Part shown: piece after piece, positions 4,560 through 63,137 of the stretch
Position numbering within the stretch: position 1 is the first letter of the stretch
Layout: every line of letters begins with the position of its first letter
DNA from: a virus
Lineage: Duplodnaviria; Caudoviricetes
Virus record (IMG/VR): IMGVR_UViG_3300043422_000045
Coordinates: 32,001 to 96,000 of that record
DNA length: 64,000 nt
Reading direction: 5' to 3' (one strand)
The notes under the pieces: generated by a model
The model's input: the letters and a program-made list of their open reading frames with translations, nothing else
What the model was told of the DNA's origin: nothing
The model's database searches: none
Translations under genes and position numbers: made by a program

Positions 4560-5369
4560 ATGAACAAAATTAAATCATATACTCAATTTTTGAATGAATC
4601 CAACTCTACGAATATAGTAAATGTGATATTGGATGCATTAGAACCAACTATTGTTAACATGTTATCTCAATCTGAAACCGCATATATTAAACAATTTGGT
4701 AAAGAGTTTTCTAAATATGAAAGAGAAATCACTAGACTTACTCTGATATATGATATGGTTAAATCTATCGAAACATACACAACGCCTTCTGATAATTTAC
4801 TTTCAATTAATGCTGGCGGAAGTCCTAAAGGAAATATAGAAATAACTGCGCAAATACAAAGAGAAGGCGTTACGTATAACTTTTCAACGGAAGTAATTTA
4901 CGCCGGAGGTTATAACATACAAAGATTACATTATCGTTATATTACCAAAACAAGTATTCCTAAAACTTCTAGTAAAACTATAACTCAAGAATATGGTGAC
5001 AAAATTAAAAAGATGTCAAAGCTTGAAAAAATCAATGATGAAATATCAATGTATGAATTTAGAATCAAAAGAGCCGAAGAATTATATGATAAAAATTCTA
5101 AGTTAAGCGATGATCAAATAATACAAGCCATAAAAAATGATCCTAAAGATTCTTGGTATGAATGGCCAACTTGGAAGGAAATAGTAAAGAGAGACGCTGC
5201 TAAAAATTACAATAACGACGAATCATATTACAACGACCAGCGAGAAGAAGGCATAGCTAAAAGAATTGAATCTTGGAAAAGAATCAATGTTCATGACAAA
5301 CCGCGCAACATAGCTGATTACAATAAAACAATCAAGAAGTTACAAACAAAGTTAGATGCTTTGTTATAG
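4560..5369 (+). CDS. Hypothetical protein with N-terminal capsid-targeting-like motif (putative internal head protein)
   Basis: MNKIKSYTQFLNE/S resembles the T4 internal-protein CTS MKTYQEFIAE. Confidence 0.5.
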   Translation: MNKIKSYTQFLNESNSTNIVNVILDALEPTIVNMLSQSETAYIKQFGKEFSKYEREITRLTLIYDMVKSIETYTTPSDNLLSINAGGSPKGNIEITAQIQREGVTYNFSTEVIYAGGYNIQRLHYRYITKTSIPKTSSKTITQEYGDKIKKMSKLEKINDEISMYEFRIKRAEELYDKNSKLSDDQIIQAIKNDPKDSWYEWPTWKEIVKRDAAKNYNNDESYYNDQREEGIAKRIESWKRINVHDKPRNIADYNKTIKKLQTKLDALL

Positions 5370-12875: not shown

Positions 12876-12960
12876 TTTCAGGTTCAATTTTAAAGATGAT
12901 ATATAATACAATAATACGTGATAAAGCGTCACATTAAAATAACAAACAAACTGTTCAAAA

Positions 12961-22200: not shown

Positions 22201-24028
22201 ATATGTAAATGATAATCTAGCAAATGATTATAAGTTTGCTGTTATCGTAAATTTACAAAAAGATTCAAATGAAACTAGTACAAGTATTGATGTTATTAAA
22301 AATGACAAATTTAAATTTATTTGTGTCTATGTTAATATTTCTTTACAAGAAAATAACGTAAAAGAAATATCTCATAAAATTTTATATGAATTAAGACACT
22401 CATATATTGAAAATACATTATCGAATAGTAAGATTCAAGGCGCTTTAAACATATATGAAGCTTATGCCAATATAATTAATTTAACTCCTACTACTGAAGT
22501 TGTAATAGATGGTTTAGAGGATATTGATGGTAAATCTCCAGCTTTTGAAAAACAAATTAGTATCACAGAACAAGGTGCTTATTCATATTTGTTATTTGAC
22601 TATAATGGTAACACATACGCTTTTCAAATTTCTAAAGTATTAAGTGATACGTCTATTAGTGTGATAGGTTATCCTAAATTATGGGATAATATAACCAATA
22701 CCGTAGGTGCTGACGCACCAGCTATAATAGAAATCACACCAGTTGATCAATCTAATTTAACTTATACATATTATGGTGGTGGATGGGACGCATTCAAGCA
22801 AAACCTGGATGATATTAAAGCTAAATCATTTAAAGAAACCTTTAATGATTTTACTAGAAAGGTAAATTATGTTAATGTGACAGAATCTGGAGATGTTGCG
22901 TATAATTCTTTTGTTTTAGAAGTTGAAAACGGAACACCTTTTTATAAAAATGCATATATTAAAACCGCGGTAGACGAAGATAAACCAAAATCTTACAAAA
23001 TATCTTCAGCCGAAGTTGGTAAAAAAATAGTTGAATCAGAGACTCCATATAGAACAATTTTAAGAAGAATGAACGGCTATTATGTACCATTAACCAAAGA
23101 TGTTTTATACTTCACTGACATATATTCAGAAAACAAAGCTTTAAAAAATAATGCAGTTCCAAATAGAGAATTGTTGATTTACAATAAATTCAATAGAACT
23201 GGAATTGCGTTTAGTTCTTATTTTGACACATTGGGTTTAAATGATTATGGAATAATTAAAAATTATTTTTATCATAAAGTAAATACTGAAGCACCAGATA
23301 GTACATTAAAATTGTCTAGCGGTACAGATAAATTACCTTTATATCCAAAAATTGGTGAAATAGCAATTGACAAAAGAGATTTAAATATATTACAGTCTAA
23401 ATACGCTGAAAATTACTATATTAAATCAGGCGCAAACAATGAATATTCATTTGTGTATGGCACTGTTAATCCAATTGAAGAAAAGGCTTTCATGGCCTCA
23501 ACAGTAATGAAGGTTTCTAACGTTTATGAAATATCTTCTTTTAGTGAAATTAAACTATCTAATATAGATGAATTAAATTCATATAGAGAAAATAACAAAG
23601 GCTCATATTCGTTGGCATGGACAGAAGTTGAAGATAAAATCTATGCTGATTTCTATGTTAAAAAAGCAGTCTTAGATGAATTATTAGAAAAAGGCATTAA
23701 GTCTTCCTTTGATAGTTATATCAATCCTTCAAAATCTTATGGTGATTTAACAACAACGTCTGACGATTTACAAGTATATTCAGAACAAAATATAGTACCG
23801 AGATTTATTATACAAAGCATTAACATATATGCTAAAGAAGGTAAAAATATCAGTTCTTCGTTTTTAAATCAAGCTGATCCTTTATTAATAGACACTGATA
23901 TTTATAAAAAACAAACTAATTATTCTACAGAAGGCTTTGTACAAGAACGTCTTAATTTTAGATTAATATATAATAAAAAACCGTCTTATAACTATGAGTT
24001 TAAAGTCGTTGTCAAAATAATAGCGTAA
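19277..24028 (+). CDS. Very large hypothetical virion structural protein
   Basis: 1583-aa ORF between structural genes and the fibre genes. Confidence 0.5.
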   Translation: MSLSTNFNTANNQIDDLSFGILRTNPKLSTNIKLVVNSSGSLYMDSIDANATLASASFKKFPINPSGFYSTDVSRFYRDLPLNLRYDIFKQNSDLSVFGDYSKQFEDQYQYGASFNSTKLYDEQYKFLAPIWLDKKTPNHFVIYRVEATDYDTLLDDSLVSQNNRIMQLLNKATIVKTFDITNTSNLGKYINNHVNSPSFPVAPIIQNFDANSHTTYCGIDIVKGGFVEKREYTNKDLLVDKIEILNNQIITEGFERNQLAVANLLNIEFLFDDELATDYKIYRYFGLYVDALYEGEFKVNDIINNDAEQSIIIENNGILSYYDLPNGISHQDMFLNTKDLSYPTLNWIKSPYNNFFHVKNGVNFDNTKKLPVSLDNKTITEFTDDVLAGTLKISILTKDAKDFIKFKITEAPHHGDKLYLTAISEFKADNFNLTPFTYMADNYLQAGKFEQQRYSTQGDLKHILHALASCITHSDNPFVATIVDDAIVIEDYAQGYDRNSVAFGVRTGNISDFINVISGKISNIDNSILPVSSLVDFNDWTNYAMTGGKDENRFIYLEKQQLGNLRKGHIIKDPVFNTKSEVLEILEDAFDSNFYRVCLSKKINKLNTYTNLNYYQSPVTYFGKFSAYNLKDFDFDFYDTSNSNYAELALDDLIVASSVEGSYYKYYNLACSQAFLINHDEYYPGLSSLSEADVVNRLENVGNDFDKDSSIVIKDLKIYSEYDRLHENELKETALLSRVVPHINKFALKDSFNARMNPYLFTVSEAFGSDNMSPNVESGLERNPLDYNMEYFHINQIPTLFKYDSNNFSKLKSYVNFLNDGELTIDNLKSIDRDYFSKYFVWEGAYLDFSKVINISSANGATYITFDKPIDGNIVTNTGITKKNGVFVPLTLPFLNADKTILTCLGNIPTQNGIVVGDLFQINNANVQFIKNKTKKLYTKFNKGDAYNFSDTIFRGLKYVYKSRKENVKIIPSEYVNDNLANDYKFAVIVNLQKDSNETSTSIDVIKNDKFKFICVYVNISLQENNVKEISHKILYELRHSYIENTLSNSKIQGALNIYEAYANIINLTPTTEVVIDGLEDIDGKSPAFEKQISITEQGAYSYLLFDYNGNTYAFQISKVLSDTSISVIGYPKLWDNITNTVGADAPAIIEITPVDQSNLTYTYYGGGWDAFKQNLDDIKAKSFKETFNDFTRKVNYVNVTESGDVAYNSFVLEVENGTPFYKNAYIKTAVDEDKPKSYKISSAEVGKKIVESETPYRTILRRMNGYYVPLTKDVLYFTDIYSENKALKNNAVPNRELLIYNKFNRTGIAFSSYFDTLGLNDYGIIKNYFYHKVNTEAPDSTLKLSSGTDKLPLYPKIGEIAIDKRDLNILQSKYAENYYIKSGANNEYSFVYGTVNPIEEKAFMASTVMKVSNVYEISSFSEIKLSNIDELNSYRENNKGSYSLAWTEVEDKIYADFYVKKAVLDELLEKGIKSSFDSYINPSKSYGDLTTTSDDLQVYSEQNIVPRFIIQSINIYAKEGKNISSSFLNQADPLLIDTDIYKKQTNYSTEGFVQERLNFRLIYNKKPSYNYEFKVVVKIIA

Positions 24029-36091: not shown

Positions 36092-37600
36092 TTGGTTCTA
36101 ACCCTAACAGAGGATAACAGATTTTTAAGGATTGATGAGGCTAATGAACTTGAGTTAGAGCAATTAAACATTTCACTAACAAAAAGAATTGATAGCTGGA
36201 GATTTAATCCACTTGTAAAGCGAGGCTTATGGGACGGTTATGTTTCTTATATTAAAGATGACAAATGGATTCCAGTGGGTTTATGGCGATATGTCATGAC
36301 GCTTTGTAAAGAATACAGATTCGAATTAAAAGTTAATGGTATCACAAGACTTTTTGATCCTAACATTACCATGGAATCTTTCGAGGCATGGGTTAATGAT
36401 TTCTTTAATGGATCAAAGATGGTTCCAAGGGACTATCAAGTAGAAGCAGCTTTCAATATACTTAAATTTAAAAGATGTTTAGCTGAATTGGCTACATCAG
36501 CAGGTAAGACTATGATTAGTTTCATGGTCGTTTCATATATGCTTGAAAAACAAAAAGCAACTAAGATTTTATTTATAGTGCCTAACGTATCTTTGGTAGT
36601 TCAAGCTACTGAAGATTTCTATGAGTACAATTGGCAAAATAGAGTTAAGATCAAAGTACAGCAGATATATGCTGGTCAAAAATTAAAACCAAACGCAAAT
36701 ATCGTTATAGGTACATATCAGTCACTTGTTAAAAAAGACAAAGATTATTTTGATGAGTTTGACGCAGTTATTGTCGATGAAACACACAAAGCTAAATCAC
36801 AATCTATTAAAGACATTTTAGCTAAGTGTAGAAATGCGCATTATAAGTTTGGTCTTTCGGGTACTTTGCCAAAAGATGGAACGCTTGATAAATTAACTTT
36901 AATGAGTCAAACTGGCCCAGTAATTACCGAGGTTAAAGCATCATTCTTGCAAAAAGAAGGACACATTGCAGGTTGTAAAGTTAAAATCATTGAAATGGAC
37001 TATGCTCCAGAATCAGCTAAAATTGCTTTTCAAGAATTGGCTCAAAATAAATACGAAAGTAAAGATGTTTTTCAACTTGAACAAAATTATGTGGTCAACA
37101 ATCAAGCACGTCTTGACTTTGTTGTGTCTGTTATATCCAGAATTCCAAGGAATTCTTTGGTACTTTTCCATAGAATCGAGCATGGCAAGAAAATATACGA
37201 CGCCCTTAGACAGAATAGCGATAAAAAAGTTTATTACGTCGATGGCTCTACAGACTCAGATATTAGAGAAGAACATAAAAAGAAGATGGAAAACGGTGAA
37301 GAGATCGTTATCGTAGCTTCTTATGGTACATTCTCAACAGGTATCTCTGTTAAGAAAATTCACAACATCTTTTTTACAGAGTCGTTTAAATCTGAAGTAA
37401 TTATTAGACAGTCTATTGGTCGTGGTTTAAGACAACATGAATCTAAAACAGATGTACTTATTATAGACTTTGTGGATAATATTTGCACATTAGAATGGGA
37501 AAACTATCTATACAAGCATGCTCTTGAAAGACAGCGTATATACAGACAGGAGCAATTTGAATATGATATTAAGAAAGTCAAATTCGAAGGAGATATATAA
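36092..37600 (+). CDS. uvsW: SF2 DNA helicase UvsW
   Basis: WDG, PRDYQ, ATSAGKT, DETH, GLSGT, ASYGTFSTGIS and QSIGRGLR motifs. Confidence 0.92.
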   Translation: MVLTLTEDNRFLRIDEANELELEQLNISLTKRIDSWRFNPLVKRGLWDGYVSYIKDDKWIPVGLWRYVMTLCKEYRFELKVNGITRLFDPNITMESFEAWVNDFFNGSKMVPRDYQVEAAFNILKFKRCLAELATSAGKTMISFMVVSYMLEKQKATKILFIVPNVSLVVQATEDFYEYNWQNRVKIKVQQIYAGQKLKPNANIVIGTYQSLVKKDKDYFDEFDAVIVDETHKAKSQSIKDILAKCRNAHYKFGLSGTLPKDGTLDKLTLMSQTGPVITEVKASFLQKEGHIAGCKVKIIEMDYAPESAKIAFQELAQNKYESKDVFQLEQNYVVNNQARLDFVVSVISRIPRNSLVLFHRIEHGKKIYDALRQNSDKKVYYVDGSTDSDIREEHKKKMENGEEIVIVASYGTFSTGISVKKIHNIFFTESFKSEVIIRQSIGRGLRQHESKTDVLIIDFVDNICTLEWENYLYKHALERQRIYRQEQFEYDIKKVKFEGDI

Positions 37601-37636: not shown

Positions 37637-39940
37637 ATGTCAGTACAAAAAATTTCATCATTTAAGTCCTTTACTGAGGTTAAAAACCAATCAAAGGCAG
37701 CTCAACTTCATGAAGAAGGTAAAGCCAAAAGAGCAGAAATAGTATCTAAAATTGGTGCAGCTCTTGAAGAAATGGGTGTTACTTCACTACAAGAATTAGA
37801 TGAAGAAAAAAGAAATGCCTTAGTTGCTAAAATCTTTAATGAAGACGAAGCAGAAGAAATTGAAAAAGATATTGTTAAATTAGGTGAACCTAAAAAAGAA
37901 GATCCTAAAAAAGGCGAAGAATTAACAAACGAGGCAGTTATCAACGAAGGGACAAGATCTCAAATTGGTAAAATTGACAAGTCAGGTAAAATCGTATCAA
38001 CTTACGTACACTATGATGGTTATCCAGAGAATATGGTGCCATTATTGAAAAATTACAAAGACACTAAATCAGTAGATCAATTATTAAAATTAGGTAAAGC
38101 GGGTATTTCATACTTAGATGCAAAGATTGGTGATAAACCATTGGATTTCAATAATCCAGAAAAAGGCATTACTTTATTCTACGGAAGAGATAGAAATGAA
38201 AAAGGTGACATGACTACTAAAGCAGACGTTAAAAACGTAGCTAAGTATTTAAAAGGTGTTGCAAACCAATCAGGTGCAGAATATGCTTATTTATACGATG
38301 AAAGAGACGGTAAATGGTACATGGCTGACACATACGAAGATAAAGAATTAAAACCAGTTGCAGAATCTTTGTTAACCGAAGGTAATGCTTTTGGAGCTGC
38401 AGTTACTAAAGCTAAAGAAGCTGGAGAAAAAGAATTTGAATTTGACGGTAAAATTTACAAAGTTAAAGAAGATAACGCATCTGAATTTGATGTAATTGAT
38501 GATGTATTCGAAGCAAACTATAATGTTTCTAGATCAGCTATCGGTAGAATGGGCGGTTTAGTACCAATCAAAGAAATGAAAGCTTTGATAGATTGTTCTA
38601 AAGCAGTCATCGAAGATCTATACGAAGAAGGCTTTGAATTAGACGAAATTATCGGCTACATCGCTTACAGAATCAATGATAAATTTGAAGGCGTGTATGA
38701 ATCAGCATTAACTGAAGGTTCACACGGAATGGCTACCAAATTACTTCAAGCTATTGTAGATGGAGATTCTTCTAAAGCAGATGGTGTTAAAATGTCAAAA
38801 GAATTAGCACAACACGCCATAGATTGGATTAAAACTTCTCCATTTGGTAAAAAATACGGAAATTTACCGCTGTATATGTTAATTAAAGCATCTATTAACT
38901 GGGGTATTGAAAGAGGTTTAGATTCAAGCTTAAAAGCTGAATTAAAATCTTTAGTAGATTCTTTAAAAGAATCCAATGAATCAATCGAAAGCGATGACGT
39001 AAACGAAGCTAGATCAATTAATAAAATTCAAACAGAATGGACTAAAGTTACTAATGCAATGAAAGACACTGCAGCTAGTTGGAAAGCAGCTGAAGGTGAT
39101 GCAAAAACTGCATTATTAACAACTTTAAAAGAAATGACAGCAAAAAAGAAAGCTTTAGAAGCTGAATTAGATGCAGTTGTTTCAGATAAAGACAAAGACT
39201 TAGAATTAGCAATGGAATCAATGACTTTAGTTTTACGATCAGTTGACGAAGGCTTTGAAGTTCATTATTCTGATGGCGTTAGAGCTATGAAGAAATTCGG
39301 TAATGAAAAACAAGCAATCGATTTTGCTAAAGATCTAATCAAAAACAAAAAAAGTTTACAATTCGTAGATGTTTTTAATGCAGGATCAGGATTTCACTCA
39401 ACATCTGATACAAATGCCATCGTAGCATTTTGGGGAGATGGTTCTTATACAGACAATGTTTCTAAGAGAGATACTAAATTAGCTGCTAAAAAAATTCAAG
39501 AATCTGTAGAAATTAACGAAGAAGACATCACGTCAGATGATCAATTTAAAGAATATGCGATGACAGTTTTAAAAGATGCATTCAAAGATGAATTCGATGA
39601 AGCTAAAGCAGAAGATGTTATCAAAGGAATTCTTAGTAAAGTTGATGGTGATTACGGCGCAGCTATCGGAATGCTAACAAGTTCTTTAGGAGAATCAGTT
39701 ACAAATGAAGCTACTGTTGAAGTAGATGCTACAGACCCTAAAGATAAAAACTTAGCTAAATTATTAAAGAAACACAATGTTACTTTAGAAGTAATTAACA
39801 AAAAGGGACCATCGGGTTATCCAGAAGTTAAATTAACCGGAGATACCAAAGATCTCAAAGCAGTTTTAGCAGATGATGAATATGGCTGGGACGATGAAGA
39901 TCTTGCAGATTATATTGAAGAATCAAACACTGAAAACTAA
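37637..39940 (+). CDS. Multi-module acidic protein, putative capsid-internal polyprotein
   Basis: CTS-like N-terminus (KISSFKSFTE); repeated (V/I/L)xE/(G/A) linkers; contains a TRSQIG...YVHYDGYP module. Confidence 0.55.
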   Translation: MSVQKISSFKSFTEVKNQSKAAQLHEEGKAKRAEIVSKIGAALEEMGVTSLQELDEEKRNALVAKIFNEDEAEEIEKDIVKLGEPKKEDPKKGEELTNEAVINEGTRSQIGKIDKSGKIVSTYVHYDGYPENMVPLLKNYKDTKSVDQLLKLGKAGISYLDAKIGDKPLDFNNPEKGITLFYGRDRNEKGDMTTKADVKNVAKYLKGVANQSGAEYAYLYDERDGKWYMADTYEDKELKPVAESLLTEGNAFGAAVTKAKEAGEKEFEFDGKIYKVKEDNASEFDVIDDVFEANYNVSRSAIGRMGGLVPIKEMKALIDCSKAVIEDLYEEGFELDEIIGYIAYRINDKFEGVYESALTEGSHGMATKLLQAIVDGDSSKADGVKMSKELAQHAIDWIKTSPFGKKYGNLPLYMLIKASINWGIERGLDSSLKAELKSLVDSLKESNESIESDDVNEARSINKIQTEWTKVTNAMKDTAASWKAAEGDAKTALLTTLKEMTAKKKALEAELDAVVSDKDKDLELAMESMTLVLRSVDEGFEVHYSDGVRAMKKFGNEKQAIDFAKDLIKNKKSLQFVDVFNAGSGFHSTSDTNAIVAFWGDGSYTDNVSKRDTKLAAKKIQESVEINEEDITSDDQFKEYAMTVLKDAFKDEFDEAKAEDVIKGILSKVDGDYGAAIGMLTSSLGESVTNEATVEVDATDPKDKNLAKLLKKHNVTLEVINKKGPSGYPEVKLTGDTKDLKAVLADDEYGWDDEDLADYIEESNTEN

Positions 39941-39998: not shown

Positions 39999-41279
39999 AT
40001 GAAAACACTTTTAAACTATACAGAGTTCCTTATTGAAAAATGGAATCAACAATATCCAGACATTATCTTAGAAGGTGGAGCAGCAGGACACATGATGCAC
40101 CCATTTGATGATGAAACTCTTACATTTGGTGAAATCAAACACATTATTGATGGTGCTTTAGAAGGTCGTTTAGATTTCGAAGCGGCTCCTACTGAAAAAA
40201 CAGACGGACAAAATGTCTTTGTTACAGTTAAGAATGGTCAAGCAATGTTCGCTAGAAATAAAGGACAGATGAAACAACCAATAGATCTTAATGGAATCAC
40301 ACAGATGTTTCAGGATCATCCATCAACTGGCGTTAGAGATACATTTACGTTCGCTGCACAAGATTTGGCCAGTGCGCTGCAATCACTATCTGCAAAGGAC
40401 CAACAAGAATTTAATGATGGAACTTCATTTATGAATATGGAATTAATTTACTCTGGTAATTCAAATGTAATCGCTTATGGTAAAGATGTTATTCAATTTC
40501 ATGGTATGGTTCACACCGATGGAGAAGGTAATCAAATAGGTTCTGATTCTAAATTAGCTGGTAAAATAGCAAATGCCTTAAAATCAGTTAATTCACACGT
40601 ACAAAAAACATTTGAAATCATTCCACCTCAGGAATTACAAATAGGTAAATCAATAGATTTTGAAGAAAAGAAAGGTTATTTCTTAAATAAGATTAATGTT
40701 TTACAAAAAAGATATAACTTACAAGACACTGATCCAGTTTCTAAATATCACTCAATGTGGTGGAAAGAGCTTATCGATAAAGACTTTTCAAATTTAGATG
40801 AAATTGATAAAGCAGGCTTAGTACAAAGATGGGCATTTGATGATAAAAAGACTCTTAATATTAGAGACTTAGCAAAGAAAATGTCTGACTCTGAATATAA
40901 AGAATTTCAACGTTTTGATAAAGAAGATTCTAAAAAGAAATTTAAAGAAAACATTTTACCATTTGAAAATCTATTCTTAGAATTAGGTTCAGTTGTGTTA
41001 AAGAATGTTTCTAATCTTTTAGTTGCTAATCCAGCTCAAGAAATGCAAAGACTACATGCACAAATTAAAACAGAGGCTGATAAAATCAAACAAAACGGAG
41101 ATTTAACTCAATTAACTAAAGTAGAAAAAGAATTAGCTAGATTAGATTCTATCGGCGGTATTGATTCTATCGTACCTTCAGAAGGCTTAGTTTTTCAATA
41201 TAAAGGTAAATTATTTAAGCTTACTGGAACATTTGCTGCCATTAATCAGCTTATGGGTATTATAAAATACGGAAGATAA
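39999..41279 (+). CDS. ATP-dependent ligase-fold nucleotidyltransferase (DUF6267-like) with CTS-like leader
   Basis: Motif I TEKTDG, ARNK, MELIY, motif IV EGLV, motif V KLT; leader MKTLLNYTEFLIE...ILE/GGAAGH. Confidence 0.6.
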   Translation: MKTLLNYTEFLIEKWNQQYPDIILEGGAAGHMMHPFDDETLTFGEIKHIIDGALEGRLDFEAAPTEKTDGQNVFVTVKNGQAMFARNKGQMKQPIDLNGITQMFQDHPSTGVRDTFTFAAQDLASALQSLSAKDQQEFNDGTSFMNMELIYSGNSNVIAYGKDVIQFHGMVHTDGEGNQIGSDSKLAGKIANALKSVNSHVQKTFEIIPPQELQIGKSIDFEEKKGYFLNKINVLQKRYNLQDTDPVSKYHSMWWKELIDKDFSNLDEIDKAGLVQRWAFDDKKTLNIRDLAKKMSDSEYKEFQRFDKEDSKKKFKENILPFENLFLELGSVVLKNVSNLLVANPAQEMQRLHAQIKTEADKIKQNGDLTQLTKVEKELARLDSIGGIDSIVPSEGLVFQYKGKLFKLTGTFAAINQLMGIIKYGR

Positions 41280-44413: not shown

Positions 44414-46420
44414 ATGAATTTTCAAAACTTTCTTAATGAGAAATATAGCAAAGATGACATCAATACAGCGTATGGCTTCTTTGGCGCTATGGAAGATGCG
44501 CATAATGAAAAAATAGCATACGAAATATTTGATGCAGCTGTTAAAGACTTGATGAAAGAATTTGGTCTTAAAGATGTTGAAGCTGTAGCTTTATTAAATA
44601 GCAAAGCGGGTAGACAAGCAGCTGATGCAATTATTGCAGGAGAATGCGATGACAGTGCGGTAGCAGGAATGTATTGGTATTTTGGTAAAAACAACAAATC
44701 AAAAATCGTTAGCGCTGCTAAAAGTGCAATTAGTGAATCTAACGAATTAGACGAAGCTTCTAAATTTGGAGCTCCAGCTGGTTTAACTAAAGCTCAAACT
44801 AAAAAGGTTGCAGAAACTTTAGCTAAAGCAATGTCAAAGACTGATAACGCTAAAGTAACGGTTAATCTTAGAACATTAGAAGAAGATTCTTTTGATTTAG
44901 ATTATAACGGAGAAGAATATGATGGCGGTTCATATAATATTTATGATGACGGTTCTGTTGTTAATCATGCAGTAACACCTAATGAAATTTATGGAACTTC
45001 TGATTCTTCAGTTGAAGATTTTATTAAAGGTTTAAAAAAGCCTATTAAAGAATCTGAAGAAGTAACAGAATCTAAAATTACTTTAAAGAGACAATATACT
45101 GAAAATTATCCAGCTAAAACAACTGGAAAGTATGCTGCTGTTAGAAATAAAATCATCGAAGCTTTAAAAGACGGTGAATTAACTAAAGAAGAATTTGACA
45201 CTTTAGTTTCTGGTTTAACAGAAGATTCTAAAAGATGGTTAAGAAGAAATTCAACCTTCTTTAATATACAAGAAGATAAAGTTGGTTTAACAAAATCTGG
45301 TCAAAAAATAGCAGCTGCTCTTTTTCAAGCGGAAGATGTTAATAGCAACTTAAAAACAAACGAAAATAACAATACAAATATGAAAACTAAATTCATTTAT
45401 GAATCATTTTCTGAATTCGTTAATTCAATTGATGAGTCTTTTGAATTAGTTTCAGAATCATTTAAATCATCTATGTTAGCTGGTTTATTTACAAGACAAG
45501 GTAAATTTGATGCTACATTAGCAAAAGCATTTTACGGAGCTACTAAATTAAAATTAGATCAAATTGAAGATGAAGATTTAATTACTACAACGCCTGCATT
45601 AGCATACAAAAACAAATTAGAAAGCTCTATTGTTTTTTATATCTCTGATGTAGAAAAACCAAATACGTATGCACCTTCAGATGCATATTATACAAGTAAA
45701 ACAATTCCAGGTGAAGGCTATTTATTGGCTGTAGCTTCAGGAGATAATAAATTCTATGATAACGTTTGGACTGGTGGAAGATGGGACAGAAATCCAAAAA
45801 ATAGAACATTAAAACAAGTTGATAATAATCCAAGTGATTCAATCGGTATTAATAAAAAATACAGCGGATGGGATGCAACAGGACTTTACAATGTTAAAAG
45901 AATTTCAGAAGTAGCTGATAGAGCAATTGTAATCAATACATCTTTATTGAGACAAAAATATTCAGCAGAAGCTGAAAGAGCAGAAAGAGCAGCAGCTAAA
46001 AAAGGTGCAATTGCATTTAAATCAGATAAAGATTTTAAAGCTGAAAACATGGCAAGATATAATCAAATCATTGCTCAGAAAGCCACTCAAATGCCAATGG
46101 ACAGTTTAGTTTCAAAAGCAATCGAAAGAATGTCTGAACAAATCAAAGACGGTTTAGCTAAACAAACTAAAGGACGTTATGGTGAAATTATCGTAGGTAC
46201 AAATGCAAAAGGCGCTGAAGCTAAATTAGCAGATGTTGCTAATCACATGCAGCGTATTTTAGATGATTATTCTGGATATGTTCGTGTTGTTGCACAACAA
46301 GAAGATTCAGTTGCTAAATATGGTGAAGCAGAATCTTGGTATAAAAGAGAAGTTGAACAAAAAGCTAAAGAACTTAAAGACAGACTTGATAAAATAGAAT
46401 CATTCTCTTATATCTGGTAA
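44414..46420 (+). CDS. Multi-module putative capsid-internal polyprotein
   Basis: MNFQNFLNE leader; internal linkers ESNELDE/A and ESEEVTE/S; second CTS-like motif IYESFSEFVN...LVSE/S. Confidence 0.5.
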   Translation: MNFQNFLNEKYSKDDINTAYGFFGAMEDAHNEKIAYEIFDAAVKDLMKEFGLKDVEAVALLNSKAGRQAADAIIAGECDDSAVAGMYWYFGKNNKSKIVSAAKSAISESNELDEASKFGAPAGLTKAQTKKVAETLAKAMSKTDNAKVTVNLRTLEEDSFDLDYNGEEYDGGSYNIYDDGSVVNHAVTPNEIYGTSDSSVEDFIKGLKKPIKESEEVTESKITLKRQYTENYPAKTTGKYAAVRNKIIEALKDGELTKEEFDTLVSGLTEDSKRWLRRNSTFFNIQEDKVGLTKSGQKIAAALFQAEDVNSNLKTNENNNTNMKTKFIYESFSEFVNSIDESFELVSESFKSSMLAGLFTRQGKFDATLAKAFYGATKLKLDQIEDEDLITTTPALAYKNKLESSIVFYISDVEKPNTYAPSDAYYTSKTIPGEGYLLAVASGDNKFYDNVWTGGRWDRNPKNRTLKQVDNNPSDSIGINKKYSGWDATGLYNVKRISEVADRAIVINTSLLRQKYSAEAERAERAAAKKGAIAFKSDKDFKAENMARYNQIIAQKATQMPMDSLVSKAIERMSEQIKDGLAKQTKGRYGEIIVGTNAKGAEAKLADVANHMQRILDDYSGYVRVVAQQEDSVAKYGEAESWYKREVEQKAKELKDRLDKIESFSYIW

Positions 46421-46450: not shown

Positions 46451-46969
46451 ATGAAACACATTCAATTATTCGAACAATTTATTAACGAAGCTAGAGCTGA
46501 AGTTAAATTAGGTAGAGTGACACCTAAAAACATAGATGAAAAGGCACAACAAGTGTTAGAAGTTTTACAAGACGCGGTTGGTAAAACTATCAACGGAGAA
46601 GAACTTAAAAAAATGGTTGGTAGAAACTGGGGAGGTCCAGGTGCAAGTAAAGGTCTTAAAAATGCTAAAATTGAAATTATTGCAGTTCACGTAGGACATA
46701 ATAATAGCTATATTTCTATGCAATTTATATATAAGACTGATTCAGATTTATTCGATAACCACGCCGAAGGTAATCAAAAATTAAAAGATCTTGAAGGTTG
46801 GGCCAAAGTAGCAGACGGTATGCGTTCTATGAAAGCAATTGACGGTAGTAATAAAGAATATAAAAGCGATGCATCGCACCAAGTCAAAGAACTTGTATTT
46901 AATAGTTTAAGTCCTAAAAACTTAGAAAATGCATTATCTATTTTAAAATTAGGTGATATTATCCTATAA
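46451..46969 (+). CDS. Putative internal head protein
   Basis: MKHIQLFEQFINE/A CTS-like leader. Confidence 0.55.
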   Translation: MKHIQLFEQFINEARAEVKLGRVTPKNIDEKAQQVLEVLQDAVGKTINGEELKKMVGRNWGGPGASKGLKNAKIEIIAVHVGHNNSYISMQFIYKTDSDLFDNHAEGNQKLKDLEGWAKVADGMRSMKAIDGSNKEYKSDASHQVKELVFNSLSPKNLENALSILKLGDIIL

Positions 46970-46983
46970 AATAAAACACAAAC

Positions 46984-47430
46984 ATGCCAGCAAAATCAAA
47001 AGCACAACAAAGATTAATGGGACTAGCTTATTCAGTTAAGCAGGGTTACATGGATATTGCTCAAGTCGGTGCAGAGTATAAAGATAAAGTTAAAGAACTT
47101 GTTAATTCAATGAGTATCGAACAACTTAAAGATTATGCTACTACGCCGCATGAAGGTTTACCAGACACTGTAGAATCAGACTCAAACGAATCTATGGGTT
47201 TTGCAACTGGTTCGAGCGGACCGCAATCTATTGGAATGCCAGGTATGGGTATGGGCAAAATAGCTTTGCCAGATTTAGGCACAGGTGCTGTTGGTTCTGG
47301 AGATAAACCAGCCGGTAGAGGTGATGCCGATGATGAATACGAAAAAGAAAAGAAGAAGAAAAAGAAACGCGAGAAAAAGCTAGCGAAATCATACGAATCT
47401 TTTATTTTCGAAAAGTATGGAAAGCTTTAA
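46984..47430 (+). CDS. DUF3008-like protein with C-terminal CTS-like motif
   Basis: MPAKSKAQQRLMG.A...MS..QLKDYA.T.H.GLP; C-terminal KSYESFIFE. Confidence 0.55.
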   Translation: MPAKSKAQQRLMGLAYSVKQGYMDIAQVGAEYKDKVKELVNSMSIEQLKDYATTPHEGLPDTVESDSNESMGFATGSSGPQSIGMPGMGMGKIALPDLGTGAVGSGDKPAGRGDADDEYEKEKKKKKKREKKLAKSYESFIFEKYGKL

Positions 47431-56347: not shown

Positions 56348-57766
56348 ATGCTATTAGACATTGAACAAAGAGAGAAGGAAATTATAGTTTCATATTTCAA
56401 CAAAGAAGGCACAGTAGATTTTAAACGTTATCCAATAACACAATTTAAAAATTGGTATGTTTGTGATCCTAAAGAAGCTGGTGCTAGTCGAGATTTTAAA
56501 AACTGGGATGGACGTTCAGTGAAACTTTCACAAGCTAGACAATTTAATAAATTTTCATTAGTTTATTTTATGGACGGCTTACCAGAAAAAGACAAAGAAG
56601 TTATTTACGAATACAATTCACCTAGAACATATTTCGTCGATATTGAAACTGAAATTGTCGATGGCTTTCCAAAGGCCGAAGAAGCTAAATCAAGAATCTT
56701 AGCTTTTTCTATAGTTACACCAGACAAAAAGGTAATCGTATTAGGTTTAGAAGACTTAGAGTCTGATAAAATTAAAAAGATTGAAGATGACACTAATGAA
56801 TACATGAAAAAATTTGGTGATGAGTGGACCTTTCAATATATTAAATTTAAAACAGAGTATGACATGGTTTATACTTTCGTTTATAAATTTATGCCTAAGT
56901 TTCCTATGATGACTGGCTGGAACTTCATTAACTATGACTGGCAGTATATTGTAAATCGATGTAAACATCTACAGATCGATATAGTTGGTTCGTCCAGGAC
57001 AGGATCATTAGATCCAGAAGACAGTAGACCATTGCACATGGGAATTCTAGATTACATGCAGTTATATGACAAATATGATAGATCTGTTAAAGTAAAAGAG
57101 TCAAACTCTTTGGATTACGTTTCTAGTCAAGTATTAGGTACTAATAAAATTAAATTCACAGGATCATTACAGGATTTATACAGAGATAATTTTACCAAGT
57201 ACATCTATTATAACGTAATTGACTCCATCTTAGTTTATTACATTGATAAAAAATTAAAATCAATGGATGTACTTATCACTCTTGCATCTATTACAAAAAT
57301 GCCATTATATAAAGCAGCTTCTCCGGTGGCAGTAACTGAAGCTTTGATTGCAAGAAAAATTGCATCTGAAGGTAAACGTATTGGAACCGAAGCTAGAGAA
57401 GATAATAAAAAAGACGGTCAATTTGCTGGAGCATTTGTTAAAGAACCTATTGTTGGTTTTTATGAAGGAGTAAGTGCATTTGACTACGCTTCACTATATC
57501 CATCTATTATGAGGCAGTTTAATGTTTCTCCAGATGCTTTTATCGAAAAGGTGCCATCTTCTAAAATAGAAGAAAGACGTAAAGATAAAAATGTTATTGT
57601 TTGTGAAAACGGAGTTGTTTATAAAAACGAAGATTCTATTCTTAAAAAAATATTATCAGATCTTTATTCACAGCGAAAAGAGTATAAGGGAATGTCCTAT
57701 GAATATTTTCACAAAGCAGAAGAAATAAAAAAGAAAATAAAAGCACTTGAAAAAGCAGGTCAATAA
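56348..57766 (+). CDS. gp43A: Family B DNA polymerase, N-terminal subunit (exonuclease + motif A)
   Basis: DIET, GWN...YD, LDY, YN..D, GAFVKEP and DYASLYPS; ends after RKEYK in the fingers. Confidence 0.9.
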   Translation: MLLDIEQREKEIIVSYFNKEGTVDFKRYPITQFKNWYVCDPKEAGASRDFKNWDGRSVKLSQARQFNKFSLVYFMDGLPEKDKEVIYEYNSPRTYFVDIETEIVDGFPKAEEAKSRILAFSIVTPDKKVIVLGLEDLESDKIKKIEDDTNEYMKKFGDEWTFQYIKFKTEYDMVYTFVYKFMPKFPMMTGWNFINYDWQYIVNRCKHLQIDIVGSSRTGSLDPEDSRPLHMGILDYMQLYDKYDRSVKVKESNSLDYVSSQVLGTNKIKFTGSLQDLYRDNFTKYIYYNVIDSILVYYIDKKLKSMDVLITLASITKMPLYKAASPVAVTEALIARKIASEGKRIGTEAREDNKKDGQFAGAFVKEPIVGFYEGVSAFDYASLYPSIMRQFNVSPDAFIEKVPSSKIEERRKDKNVIVCENGVVYKNEDSILKKILSDLYSQRKEYKGMSYEYFHKAEEIKKKIKALEKAGQ

Positions 57767-60549: not shown

Positions 60550-60642
60550 ATGTTTTAAGGAGATATATAATAAAATAATCTTAAATATATTTTTTTATTT
60601 CATATAAATTAATTATATTTGTATATCAAAAAAAACAAAATT

Positions 60643-61056
60643 ATGAAACACATTAAATTATTCGAACAGTTCGTAAACGAATCTGACGACATGAGTTTTG
60701 CGTCGGCAGCAGGAAATGGAAGATCTATTGGAAGATATAGTGGAAGCACCGGTGCTTCTGCCGAATGGGATAACCAAACTGTTATTTCAAATGCATCAGA
60801 GTATTCTACTGAAATTCTAACAAATGCTGCATCTGCATTAAGAGATCTTGGTATTCAAGTAAAAGAAAAACCAATACAAGATGGTATATTAACAACTAAA
60901 TTCGGAGGCACAACATGGACGTATCAATTTAAAGGTGGCAAATGGATCGCTACAGTCGGTGACGCAGAAGCTCCAAAAGACATCTATGAATTTATCAGAT
61001 TCATGGTAGCTCGAAAATATATAAAATTCAAAGATAAACTAGTAGGAAGTAAATAA
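60643..61056 (+). CDS. Putative internal head protein
   Basis: MKHIKLFEQFVNE/S leader; late motif at 60562 and early motif at 60614. Confidence 0.55.
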   Translation: MKHIKLFEQFVNESDDMSFASAAGNGRSIGRYSGSTGASAEWDNQTVISNASEYSTEILTNAASALRDLGIQVKEKPIQDGILTTKFGGTTWTYQFKGGKWIATVGDAEAPKDIYEFIRFMVARKYIKFKDKLVGSK

Positions 61057-61191: not shown

Positions 61192-61941
61192 ATGAAAGTA
61201 GTTATTAACAAAGTAGATCAGAACAACTTTGTAGCATTCATTAATCGTTTAAGAGTTATTGATTCTTTTGTCTATTTCAAAATTAAAGACGAACAAATCA
61301 TCTCTTCAGCTTATTTGCCACAACGTGACGCTGTAAAACACCACACACTTCCAATTTCAGAAGTATTTCAAATTGATGCTAGTCAATTAACAACAGACAA
61401 AGACCTTAAAGTGGCTTTCTTTGATGCTGGTAAAATTATCGAAGCATTCAAACAATTTGAATACGATTCTATTCAAGCAGAAATTGAATTCGTAGAAAAC
61501 GATGAAGACTGTGTAGCTTCTACATTTAAAATCTTTAATGACGAGTTAGAAATCGTTTTAGCTTGTTCAGAACCATCTTTAGGTTACAAAGACTTAACCG
61601 AGTCTCAATTACAAAATATCTTCATGACTGAAGGTGCTGAAGTTAACTTTGATTTATCATTCACTGATACATCTAAGATTAAATCTCTTTTCAACTTAGA
61701 TAAAGACGAGACTTTTGCAATTTCAACTTCTAAAGAAGGTGTTCGTATTAAAGGTAAATCTTACAACAAATTAATCAATTCAACTAGCGTTTCTAAGGCT
61801 AATGTGACTGTTTACAAAAAGTATTTGAACTTGTTTGACAAAGAAGATTATTCTACTTATGTCTTTAACAATAGAGTAGTTTTACGCTCTAAAGACTCAA
61901 ACACTCTTTTAACAATCGCAACTTGCCAAAGCACTGATTAA
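61192..61941 (+). CDS. Probable sliding clamp (gp45/PCNA-like)
   Basis: About 250 aa, two-domain alpha/beta pattern, coupled to the polymerase subunit; no strong motif. Confidence 0.5.
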   Translation: MKVVINKVDQNNFVAFINRLRVIDSFVYFKIKDEQIISSAYLPQRDAVKHHTLPISEVFQIDASQLTTDKDLKVAFFDAGKIIEAFKQFEYDSIQAEIEFVENDEDCVASTFKIFNDELEIVLACSEPSLGYKDLTESQLQNIFMTEGAEVNFDLSFTDTSKIKSLFNLDKDETFAISTSKEGVRIKGKSYNKLINSTSVSKANVTVYKKYLNLFDKEDYSTYVFNNRVVLRSKDSNTLLTIATCQSTD

Positions 61942-63137
61942 TGACTATTGAACAACTACTTAATAAACCAGAAGACCAACTAACTTTGGTTGAGCTTAAA
62001 TCCTTAGCAGACTTTTATTCAAACGAGTCTGCTAAGTTTACAGCTTATGAACAAGCAGTTAAGTTAACACTTAACTCGATCTACGGAGCCTTTGGTAATA
62101 AGTGGTTTCACTTCTTTAATATTGACATTGCTGAATCTATTACTTTACAAGGTCAAAATGCAATCTTATATTCCGAAAAGATACTTAATAAGTACTTTCA
62201 AGAATTCTTTGTCAAAGATACTAAAATTCATGAAGAATTAAATATCAAAGTTAAAAGAGCTTGCGTTAAACCGGCTGTAATTTATATCGATACGGATTCC
62301 AATTACGTCCAATTTCAAGAGATGTATGAATCTATCGAGTGGTTAGGTGAAAAGCTAGACATCGTAACGTTTATCCTTAAACTTTACAATTTACGTATCA
62401 AAGATTATATCGTTAAGTCGCTAGACAAATACGCTGAAAATAGAAACACTGATTCATTTTTAGAATTTGAATTAGAATCTATTGCATACTCAGGTATTTG
62501 GATGGCTAAAAAGAAATACTTGCAAAATTTAGCGTGGGACGATAAACTTGGCGTAAACGAAAGACATGCAATGTTAAAGAAGATCAAAACCATCGGTTAT
62601 GATACTATTCAATCTTCAACACCAATGTTTGCTCGTAAGAAACTATCAGAAGCTTTACAGATTCTTTTTGAAAAGAAGCCAACCCCAGAAACTTTAACAA
62701 CTATTGTTTCGTTTCTTAAAAAGGCAAAGAAAGAATTTAAGTTAGCGCCGATAGATGAAATCTCTTTTAACAAGAGAACAAACAATTTAGAGAAGTATAT
62801 CGTAGATGATCACGTTGAGTTTCAATATGGACTAAAATGTCCACCTAACGTTAAAGCTGCTGGATTTTATAATTACTTAATGAATAACAATCCTAAGTAT
62901 AAAAACAAATACAGAATGATTGGTAATGGTGAGAAGCTAAGATTATTCCATTGTGAACACAAGACATGTGAGATCTTTGCATATTTGCCAGGTGATCATC
63001 CTTATGAATTTGCACCAGCCGTAGATTATGAAACTCAATTTGAAAAATCAGTAATTGATCCATTGAATAGAGTTTTAGGCTGTATTGGTCTTCAGACATT
63101 AAACAGAAACTTAATTTATTCAACTTCATTATTTTAA
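61941..63137 (+). CDS. gp43B: Family B DNA polymerase, C-terminal subunit (motifs B, C, thumb)
   Basis: KLTLNSIYGAFGN, ITLQGQ, YIDTDS, KKKY and SSTP; C-terminal SLF clamp-binding-like tail. Confidence 0.9.
   Translation: MTIEQLLNKPEDQLTLVELKSLADFYSNESAKFTAYEQAVKLTLNSIYGAFGNKWFHFFNIDIAESITLQGQNAILYSEKILNKYFQEFFVKDTKIHEELNIKVKRACVKPAVIYIDTDSNYVQFQEMYESIEWLGEKLDIVTFILKLYNLRIKDYIVKSLDKYAENRNTDSFLEFELESIAYSGIWMAKKKYLQNLAWDDKLGVNERHAMLKKIKTIGYDTIQSSTPMFARKKLSEALQILFEKKPTPETLTTIVSFLKKAKKEFKLAPIDEISFNKRTNNLEKYIVDDHVEFQYGLKCPPNVKAAGFYNYLMNNNPKYKNKYRMIGNGEKLRLFHCEHKTCEIFAYLPGDHPYEFAPAVDYETQFEKSVIDPLNRVLGCIGLQTLNRNLIYSTSLF

Follow-up and report, generated by a model that had tools for sequence, protein, structure and literature searches.

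We analyzed a 64,000-nucleotide (nt) stretch of viral DNA (the window; bases 32001-96000 of the 111,650-bp IMG/VR contig IMGVR_UViG_3300043422_000045), in which a single open reading frame (ORF) at 37637-39940 on the + strand, with an ATG start, encodes a 767-amino-acid (aa) protein made of nine modules and eight stereotyped linkers. Our data suggest, with a probability of about 0.6, that this protein is a cargo polyprotein that would be loaded into the capsid and cut into nine pieces by an S77-type prohead protease. In the scheme we infer from sequence, which covers cleavage, packaging, ejection and an effector role of the modules, the constant N-terminal module 0, bearing a motif like that of T4 internal protein I (IPI), would carry the whole chain into the core of the assembling prohead. 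The S77 protease would then cut after Glu at eight junctions, with the consensus (K)E/S-phi-x-phi-N-E/G or A (a slash marks the predicted cut here and below; phi, hydrophobic), often in tandem. The products would be module 0 and eight small proteins of 5-16 kDa, which would remain in the head and reach the host along with the DNA. Each bead would thus correspond to a T4-style leader and internal protein fused in frame, so that one tag could load a whole set of modules reshuffled at the linkers.

The original prediction had described a 767-aa protein punctuated by stereotyped linkers; the ORF is real and all eight of the linkers it quoted are present. The Glu residues immediately before the predicted cuts (position P1) are residues 104, 248, 292, 360, 457, 538, 628 and 691, delimiting modules of 44-144 residues, as follows.

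37637..37948 (+), aa 1-104: module 0, constant and N-terminal, with the tandem site LTNE/AVINE/G at its end (linker nt 37922-37948)
37949..38380 (+), aa 105-248: module 1, phrog_1987 family, with the linker PVAE/SLLTE/G at its end (nt 38363-38380)
38381..38512 (+), aa 249-292: module 2, a 44-aa GNAFG...FEFDGKxYKV unit, with DDVFE/A at its end (nt 38498-38512)
38513..38716 (+), aa 293-360: module 3, with VYE/SALTE/G at its end (nt 38699-38716)
38717..39007 (+), aa 361-457: module 4, beginning GSHGMA..., with SLKE/SNESIE/SDDVNE/A at its end (nt 38978-39007)
39008..39250 (+), aa 458-538: module 5, helical, beginning ARSINK..., with RSVDE/G at its end (nt 39236-39250)
39251..39520 (+), aa 539-628: module 6, beginning GFEVHYSDG..., with KIQE/SVEINE/E at its end (nt 39500-39520)
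39521..39709 (+), aa 629-691: module 7, an acidic helical unit, with SLGE/SVTNE/A at its end (nt 39692-39709)
39710..39940 (+), aa 692-767: module 8 and the stop codon, phrog_5922-like (E-value 9e-7)

The linkers exceed what would be expected by chance. The pattern E[SA][LIVA][LIVET][TNI]N?E has five matches in the 767-aa protein vs. one elsewhere in the contig's 35,896-aa ORF set, and 11 of the 13 matches to [LIVF]xE[GAS] within the protein lie at a junction or at most 12 residues upstream of one, the remaining two being inside module 7 and five residues before the C-terminal end. Scanning the contig with position weights returned 19 sites (vs. 7.65 in shuffles), eight of them in the 767-aa protein; other top-scoring sites were found in the gene after the capsid gene (ESLVLE/G) and in one leader of the capsid-targeting type discussed below. 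The linkers PVAE/SLLTE/G, VYE/SALTE/G, KIQE/SVEINE/E and SLGE/SVTNE/A carry tandem sites, and double cutting would therefore remove a spacer of 5-6 residues. A possible C-terminal trim site is present in module 8 (YIEE/SNTEN, aa 762).

All eight junctions of the protein fit a processing rule of Glu at P1, a hydrophobic residue at P3 and a small residue after the cut (PMC9026906). This motif is conserved among relatives, as judged from 102 module starts projected in 17 non-redundant proteins. P1 was Glu in 96 of the 102 junctions and never Asp; of the six exceptions, four or more reflect a shift in register, a Glu lying 1-3 residues away. The residue following the cut (P1') was Gly in 49, Ala in 35 and Glu in 10 (Gly or Ala in 84 of 102), while P3 was V, I, L, T, F or M in 95. 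Asn was found at P2 in 42 junctions, Glu at P6 in 41 and Ser at P5 in 27, and a second E[SAG] occurred 3-7 residues upstream in 67. Junction conservation was independent of which module lies upstream: all 15 module 5 starts in these 17 relatives (two have no module 5) are preceded by ...E/A or ...E/G, whatever the upstream module.

Relatives were gathered by a word-indexed search (540 proteins at E<=0.001), and architectures were assigned by per-module BLAST for 120 of them. We observed 42 architectures, all with module 0 first (0-8-5-2-2-4-2-X-7-X, 0-1-3-2-5-6-7 and 0-2-1-5-X-7-8, for example), in which modules were reordered, duplicated, lost or swapped for unrelated inserts. Module 8 directly follows module 0 in some relatives; module 3 is present, absent or reordered; module 2 occurs in one to three copies per relative, with ...E/G before each copy; and module 7 is nearly always kept, toward the C-terminus. 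Cutting 49 non-redundant proteins at the predicted sites gave 323 segments in 73 clusters (single linkage gave one cluster), a census that is rough because some segments were under-cut. In this census, all 37 members of the module 0 cluster stood at ordinal position 0, and among the variable modules module 7 was retained most widely (43 members, ordinal positions 2-10). Within the same 49 relatives, 68% of 2594 starts of internal BLAST high-scoring segment pairs fell within -12 to +3 of an [LIVFMT]xE[GAS] site (vs. 25% at random), and 44% of their ends lay near such sites (vs. 17%). The points at which homology between relatives breaks off are concentrated at the linkers, as expected from the shuffling that the original prediction had proposed to look for there.

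The same motif that links modules within the polyprotein ends the leaders of their stand-alone homologues. The module 1 homologues of cultured phages (CcrColossus gp083, an S-T4 protein and a Kaldavass protein) start with MATRS or MGTRS, their second residue (Gly or Ala) aligning with the first residue past the junction Glu. Among metagenomic stand-alone forms of module 1, some are leaderless (P0147) and others have 13-20-residue leaders ending in the linker motif (...LLTE/A, ...LITE/G or ...VINE/G), for example MKLKSLISESLLTE/ATRSQ, MIKLKNLLSENLITE/GTRSQ, MIKLTELLKEGVINE/GTRSQ and MKNIKLFEEFINEKPINE/GTRSQ; a third group consists of minimal strings, in which module 1 follows module 0 or a module 4-like unit. 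A stand-alone module 4 (P0412) has the leader MKNHIPTYDQFVNESSINE/GSHGMA, of the capsid-targeting type, and stand-alone versions of module 6 (P0376, P0379 and P0386) follow a leader of 28 aa that ends VQE/AYEVHYS, so that the leaders span 13-28 residues overall. Domain boundaries coincide with the xxE linkers, as the original prediction required: stand-alone modules 1, 4 and 6 start right after the junction Glu. For module 1 this also holds on the C-terminal side, where the stand-alone proteins end ...DKELKLL, just short of the point at which the next linker of the 767-aa protein (P0001), ESLLTE, begins.

In T4, loading into the capsid needs no more than the N-terminal 10 residues of IPIII; processing of the capsid-targeting sequence (CTS) depends on its residues 8 and 10 (P3 and P1) and is blocked by Asp at position 10. 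The prohead proteases of T4, phiKZ, 201phi2-1 and SPN3US cut C-terminal to Glu, and propeptides often have redundant sites (PMC9026906 and PMC5694885). T4 IPII and IPIII start MKTYQEFIAE/A, while IPI starts MKTFKEFTST (read from NC_000866). The latter is resembled by KISSFKSFTE, a conserved motif at aa 5-14 of module 0, whose N-terminus is MSVQKISSFKSFTE. A small protein encoded between portal and protease, the position of gp67 and gp68 in T4, starts ..KTFEQFIFE/A, and its relatives start KTFEQFINE/A, KTFEEFVAE/A or KTFEEFTSSLQE/D. A CTS-like pattern occurs at ten N-termini in the contig (3.6 per 1000 residues, vs. 0.84 internally), including those of the 767-aa protein, of its ligase-like neighbour and of a second hypervariable gene. 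Many proteins of this phage thus appear, from their sequences, to be tagged.

CTS-like N-termini are also seen in further, unrelated proteins: in the window at 46451-46969, 60619-61056 and 4560-5369 (+) (MKHIQLFEQFINE/A, ..MKHIKLFEQFVNE/S and MNKIKSYTQFLNE/S, respectively), and on the contig at G000:C1:13557-14507 and 22530-23249 (..IMLFEQFLNE/A and MAKLKTFEQYVSE/M, respectively). In a 148-aa DUF3008 protein (window 46984-47430, +), the CTS-like stretch is at the C-terminus (..SYESFIFEKYGKL) and not at the N-terminus.

The contig encodes a Peptidase_S77 prohead protease of the gp21 type (PF03420 at G000:C1:106751-107092; E-value 2.4e-13, 46 bits vs. a cut-off of 27). A search of the 111-kb fragment for S78 and ClpP found neither. 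The C-terminal end of the S77 domain carries the sequence DPGFxNAELxR[VC]NE/[AS][FY]G, which is kept in 39 of 39 distinct variants among relatives (Asn is preceded by Val in 38 of them and by Cys in the other), with variable scaffold-like sequence beyond it. VNE/A or VNE/S is the predicted self-cleavage site of the clade's S77 enzyme. The protease is fused to a C-terminal region of about 430 aa that is acidic, helical and scaffold-like (G000:C1:106679-108481, outside the window); T4 encodes protease and scaffold separately.

The original prediction placed a set of effector modules behind one packaging tag, to be released by the head-maturation protease. The module boundaries, a constant module 0 with an IPI-like motif and the S77 protease all fit this proposal; no function could be assigned to any module. 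Its suggestion that the TRSQIG...YVHYDGYPE...EYAYLY module belongs to a widespread family of stand-alone genes was borne out, module 1 matching phrog_1987 (E-value 1.2e-19, residues 105-238 against profile positions 2-123 of 128), which includes stand-alone genes in cultured phages. The family is very large and phage-only; a module 1 profile retrieved 6153 representative clusters (E<=0.001; 2247 when E<=1e-10 is required). Its members occupy either end or the interior of proteins 100-954 aa long.

The AlphaFold2 (AF2) model of module 1 (58-row alignment) had a predicted local distance difference test (pLDDT) score of 96.1 and a predicted template-modelling score of 0.90, with confidence dropping only in the last four residues, which belong to the linker. 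A sequence profile search of the PDB with module 1 gave nothing under E 0.07, Foldseek against the PDB gave a best E-value of 0.017 with a template-modelling (TM) score of 0.27, and the best Z obtained with VIA-align was 3.8 (48,161 chains compared). In BFVD, module 1 matched uncharacterised phage proteins (E-values down to 5.7e-10), and the ESM Atlas returned unnamed viral clusters only. Module 1 therefore has a confidently predicted fold without a match among solved structures, which is not proof of a new fold. Neither the full-length protein nor a single one of its nine modules matched a Pfam family above threshold (PADLOC and NCBIfam were not searched), module 6 having weak sub-threshold matches to WGR and DUF2188 only. 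Modelling verified the structural boundary of module 1, and searches with the single modules assigned no function.

The contig (GC content 32%; CheckV completeness estimate 39%, with 61% of the genome unseen) derives from a distant relative of T4 that encodes a Gp23-type capsid protein, baseplate wedge and hub proteins, a gp32-like single-stranded DNA-binding protein, a primase, a UvsW helicase and ribonucleotide reductases. Its capsid protein is nearest to those of an uncultured 462-kb phage (51% identity) and of Lak phages (38%). These capsid relatives, together with the source name of one homologue, hint weakly at a Bacteroidota host. An IMG/VR scan yielded 59 related loci, most of which, apart from truncated contigs, share a conserved frame running from gp32 to a cytidylyltransferase-like gene. 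In non-truncated loci the order is gp32, primase, a small ORF, a 147-aa ORF, UvsW (502 aa) and the polyprotein gene, followed by the ligase-like gene (about 426 aa) and the cytidylyltransferase-like gene (about 620 aa). Complete polyprotein ORFs in these loci range from about 460 to 1016 aa.

The ligase-like neighbour (window 39999-41279, +; 426 aa) starts in CTS-like fashion (MKTLLNYTEFLIE/K) and contains EKTDGQN, a K-x-DG motif of the kind usual in ligase/nucleotidyltransferase enzymes. It had no Pfam or PHROG match, and is kept at about 423-442 aa wherever it is complete in related loci. The second hypervariable string-of-modules gene (window 44414-46420, +) encodes 668 aa, with lengths of about 300 to 817 aa in related loci. 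Its product has the CTS-like start MNFQNFLNE/K and the tandem-site linkers AISE/SNELDE/A and PIKE/SEEVTE/S, and around aa 322 the CTS-like stretch MKTKFIYESFSEFVNSIDE/S lies within the chain. In some related loci, this product and the 767-aa protein have modules in common. Elsewhere in the window, a family-B DNA polymerase is encoded in two ORFs about 4 kb apart (56348-57766 and 61941-63137, +), one matching the N-terminal half of phrog_262 and the other its C-terminal half; ribonucleotide reductase genes and other ORFs intervene.

Upstream of the polyprotein gene lies a promoter-like motif:

37592..37600 (+): GATATATAA(T), 44 nt upstream of the ATG and overlapping the UvsW stop codon; candidate late-type promoter

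The whole contig has 11 copies of GATATATAA(T) on the + strand and none on the - strand, and 10 of the 11 are at most 70 nt upstream of a + strand start. The genes behind them include the portal, the protease-scaffold fusion, the gene after the major capsid protein and tail-fibre-like genes; the core ATATATAA also occurs 123 nt upstream of the major capsid protein gene. The copies in the window are at 12898, 19244, 33098, 37592 and 60562 (+), with six more elsewhere on the contig. Of 18 distinct related loci whose ORF starts with the module 0 motif, 17 had ATATATAA upstream of that ORF, four of them without overlap of the UvsW stop. The T4 late promoter TATAAATA has 13 copies in the contig, none of them 80 nt or less upstream of the polyprotein gene, and was dropped in favour of GATATATAA(T).

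Several observations weigh against a capsid-loaded, protease-cut polyprotein. The gene lies between those for the UvsW helicase and the ligase-like protein, in a replication cluster and outside the head module. The module 0 motif is in a different register from the FEQFINE-type leaders of other genes on the contig, and its Glu is replaced by Gln in 3 of the 18 sequences compared (P0048, P0076 and P0107). An attempt to calibrate the specificity of the protease on the capsid maturation site failed: in 13 of 80 relatives, Ser replaces the Glu of the N-terminal LINE/A (residue 7). The modules have isoelectric points (pI) of 4.1-6.9 and the whole protein one of 4.78, i.e. acidic to neutral, whereas T4 internal proteins are basic (PMC9026906). 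The full-length AF2 model (22-row alignment) had a mean pLDDT of 45.9 and is unusable for boundaries or fold searches, so that a structural domain boundary is verified for module 1 only. The GATATATAA(T) motif, a candidate for the clade's late-promoter consensus (unlike T4's TATAAATA) whose late timing is presumed, is modestly enriched in the window (5 copies vs. 1.97 expected, a count reached in 4 of 100 shuffles). Lastly, INPHARED contains no full-length relative, its seven matching records covering residues 99-245 only, and thus offers no cultured relative.

The acidic to neutral character of the modules keeps open the explanation that the protein is an accessory of the core or scaffold, cut by the prohead protease into acidic pieces that would be lost from the capsid together with the fragments of the scaffold, no later than during DNA packaging, and would not enter the host. 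The pI of the whole protein and those of modules 0, 2, 3, 7 and 8 (4.1-4.9) resemble those of the protease-scaffold fusion (4.62) and of the small protein between portal and protease (4.19), and modules 0 and 5 are predicted to be helical, albeit in a low-confidence model. However, one would expect a filler neither to be hypervariable and exchange its modules freely, nor to have modules that recur, leaderless and as separate genes, in unrelated phages without the tag; module 1, moreover, is predicted to be a compact globular domain (pLDDT 96). On balance we consider this explanation unlikely. Slightly less probable still is an uncleaved multidomain protein, whose linkers would serve structure or binding (as strands that dock on a shared partner, for instance) and which would stay intact in the cytoplasm, perhaps working with the products of the neighbouring replication and repair genes. 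The conserved gp32-primase-UvsW-polyprotein-ligase-like-cytidylyltransferase frame, seen in most of the 59 loci, would suit such a role. Flexible linkers are not normally so conserved, however, with a P1 that is almost invariably Glu and never Asp, and the same motif also ends the S77 protease domain. In the stand-alone homologues, moreover, the motif cannot be an interdomain linker, because there it ends N-terminal leaders.

Cleavage could also occur outside the capsid, if a host protease or one encoded in the unseen 61% of the genome cut the linkers in the cytoplasm, as in a classical viral polyprotein. The location of the gene outside the head module is consistent with this, and since the contig is estimated to be 39% complete, other proteases may exist. 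We think it improbable, as the motif fits both the Glu-specific rule of gp21-type enzymes and the predicted self-cleavage site of the clade's S77 protease and is shared by the T4-like CTS leaders, and neither S78 nor ClpP turned up in the fragment. Finally, the linkers might matter mainly as DNA, acting as short repeats that serve as in-frame joints for recombination, with the peptide being incidental. Shuffling breakpoints do lie at the linkers, yet the motif is conserved as a peptide in the leaders of unlinked genes. The eight linkers use varied synonymous codons (TCT, TCA and AGC for Ser; GTA and GTT for Val; GGG, GGT and GGC for Gly; GCA and GCT for Ala) and were not reported as a DNA repeat family within this gene, suggesting that selection acts on the peptide and not on the DNA. 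The DNA-repeat explanation was rejected for this gene on these grounds, and we regard it as very improbable.

A capsid-loaded polyprotein of this kind would be closest to the T4 internal proteins (IPI, IPII and IPIII) and Alt. The T4 leader, which has an F-x-x-F-phi-x-E pattern and is cut after Glu, has lookalikes here, the module 0 motif being in a different register, and a gp21-type S77 protease is encoded in both cases; diverse, fast-evolving payloads follow a conserved tag (PMC3012670, PMC9026906), and the T4 ip genes, like the gene for the 767-aa protein, lie outside the head module. In T4, however, there is one CTS and one protein per gene, whereas here eight internal leader-like sites join nine modules behind a 104-aa constant module. 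Because nine modules and eight internal sites share one ORF, we consider the system a variant, rather than a plain member, of the T4 CTS system. The ejection and inner-body proteins of phiKZ, 201phi2-1 and SPN3US are likewise cut after Glu (AXE, SXE) by a gp21-related protease, and have N-terminal propeptides of more than 100 residues with redundant sites. They are single proteins that shed a propeptide, and no strings of unrelated modules were found described in the available parts of the sources (PMC5694885, PMC9026906). The P3 residue of the motif in the 767-aa protein is hydrophobic as in T4, and not Ala or Ser as in these giant phages.

Polyvalent proteins (Iyer et al. 2017, PMC5512222) also contain many unrelated domains per chain, in combinatorial architectures of 2-15 domains. 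Packaging and delivery along with the DNA have been predicted for them, possibly followed by proteolytic release, for which the authors themselves draw an analogy with RNA-virus polyproteins (PMC5512222). They differ in having recognisable enzymatic domains and often their own embedded peptidase, either a zincin-like metallopeptidase (MPTase) or a C-terminal assemblin-like one (PMC5512222). The 767-aa protein has no Pfam match to conflict domains of the polyvalent type (MPTase, ADP-ribosyltransferase, kinases, helicases, primases) and no embedded peptidase, its predicted cuts being made by a separate prohead protease at a stereotyped linker. The stand-alone phrog_1987 proteins of cultured phages, such as CcrColossus gp083, are leaderless products of separate genes, while here the family forms an internal bead. 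We found no published description of polyproteins joined by prohead-protease sites in the full-text literature (subscription journals lay outside its coverage).

It is possible, and we put it forward tentatively, that this uncultured clade of large T4-like phages uses the prohead-protease site as a universal in-frame connector, such that any small protein behind a 6-10-residue linker would become a payload that is delivered in the capsid, released singly and, as part of 'effector cassettes', reshuffled at two hypervariable loci. Should the predicted cuts occur, a single tag and a single protease site would provide plug-in delivery of ready-made proteins at infection. The principle of 'expression-packaging-processing' known from T4 would then extend from single proteins to multi-protein strings, giving a phage analogue of RNA-virus polyproteins that carries folds, such as that of module 1, not yet among solved structures. 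This would also explain the presence of two hypervariable genes in an otherwise rigid gene order, and hundreds of small module families would become candidate immediate-early host-takeover or anti-defence proteins.

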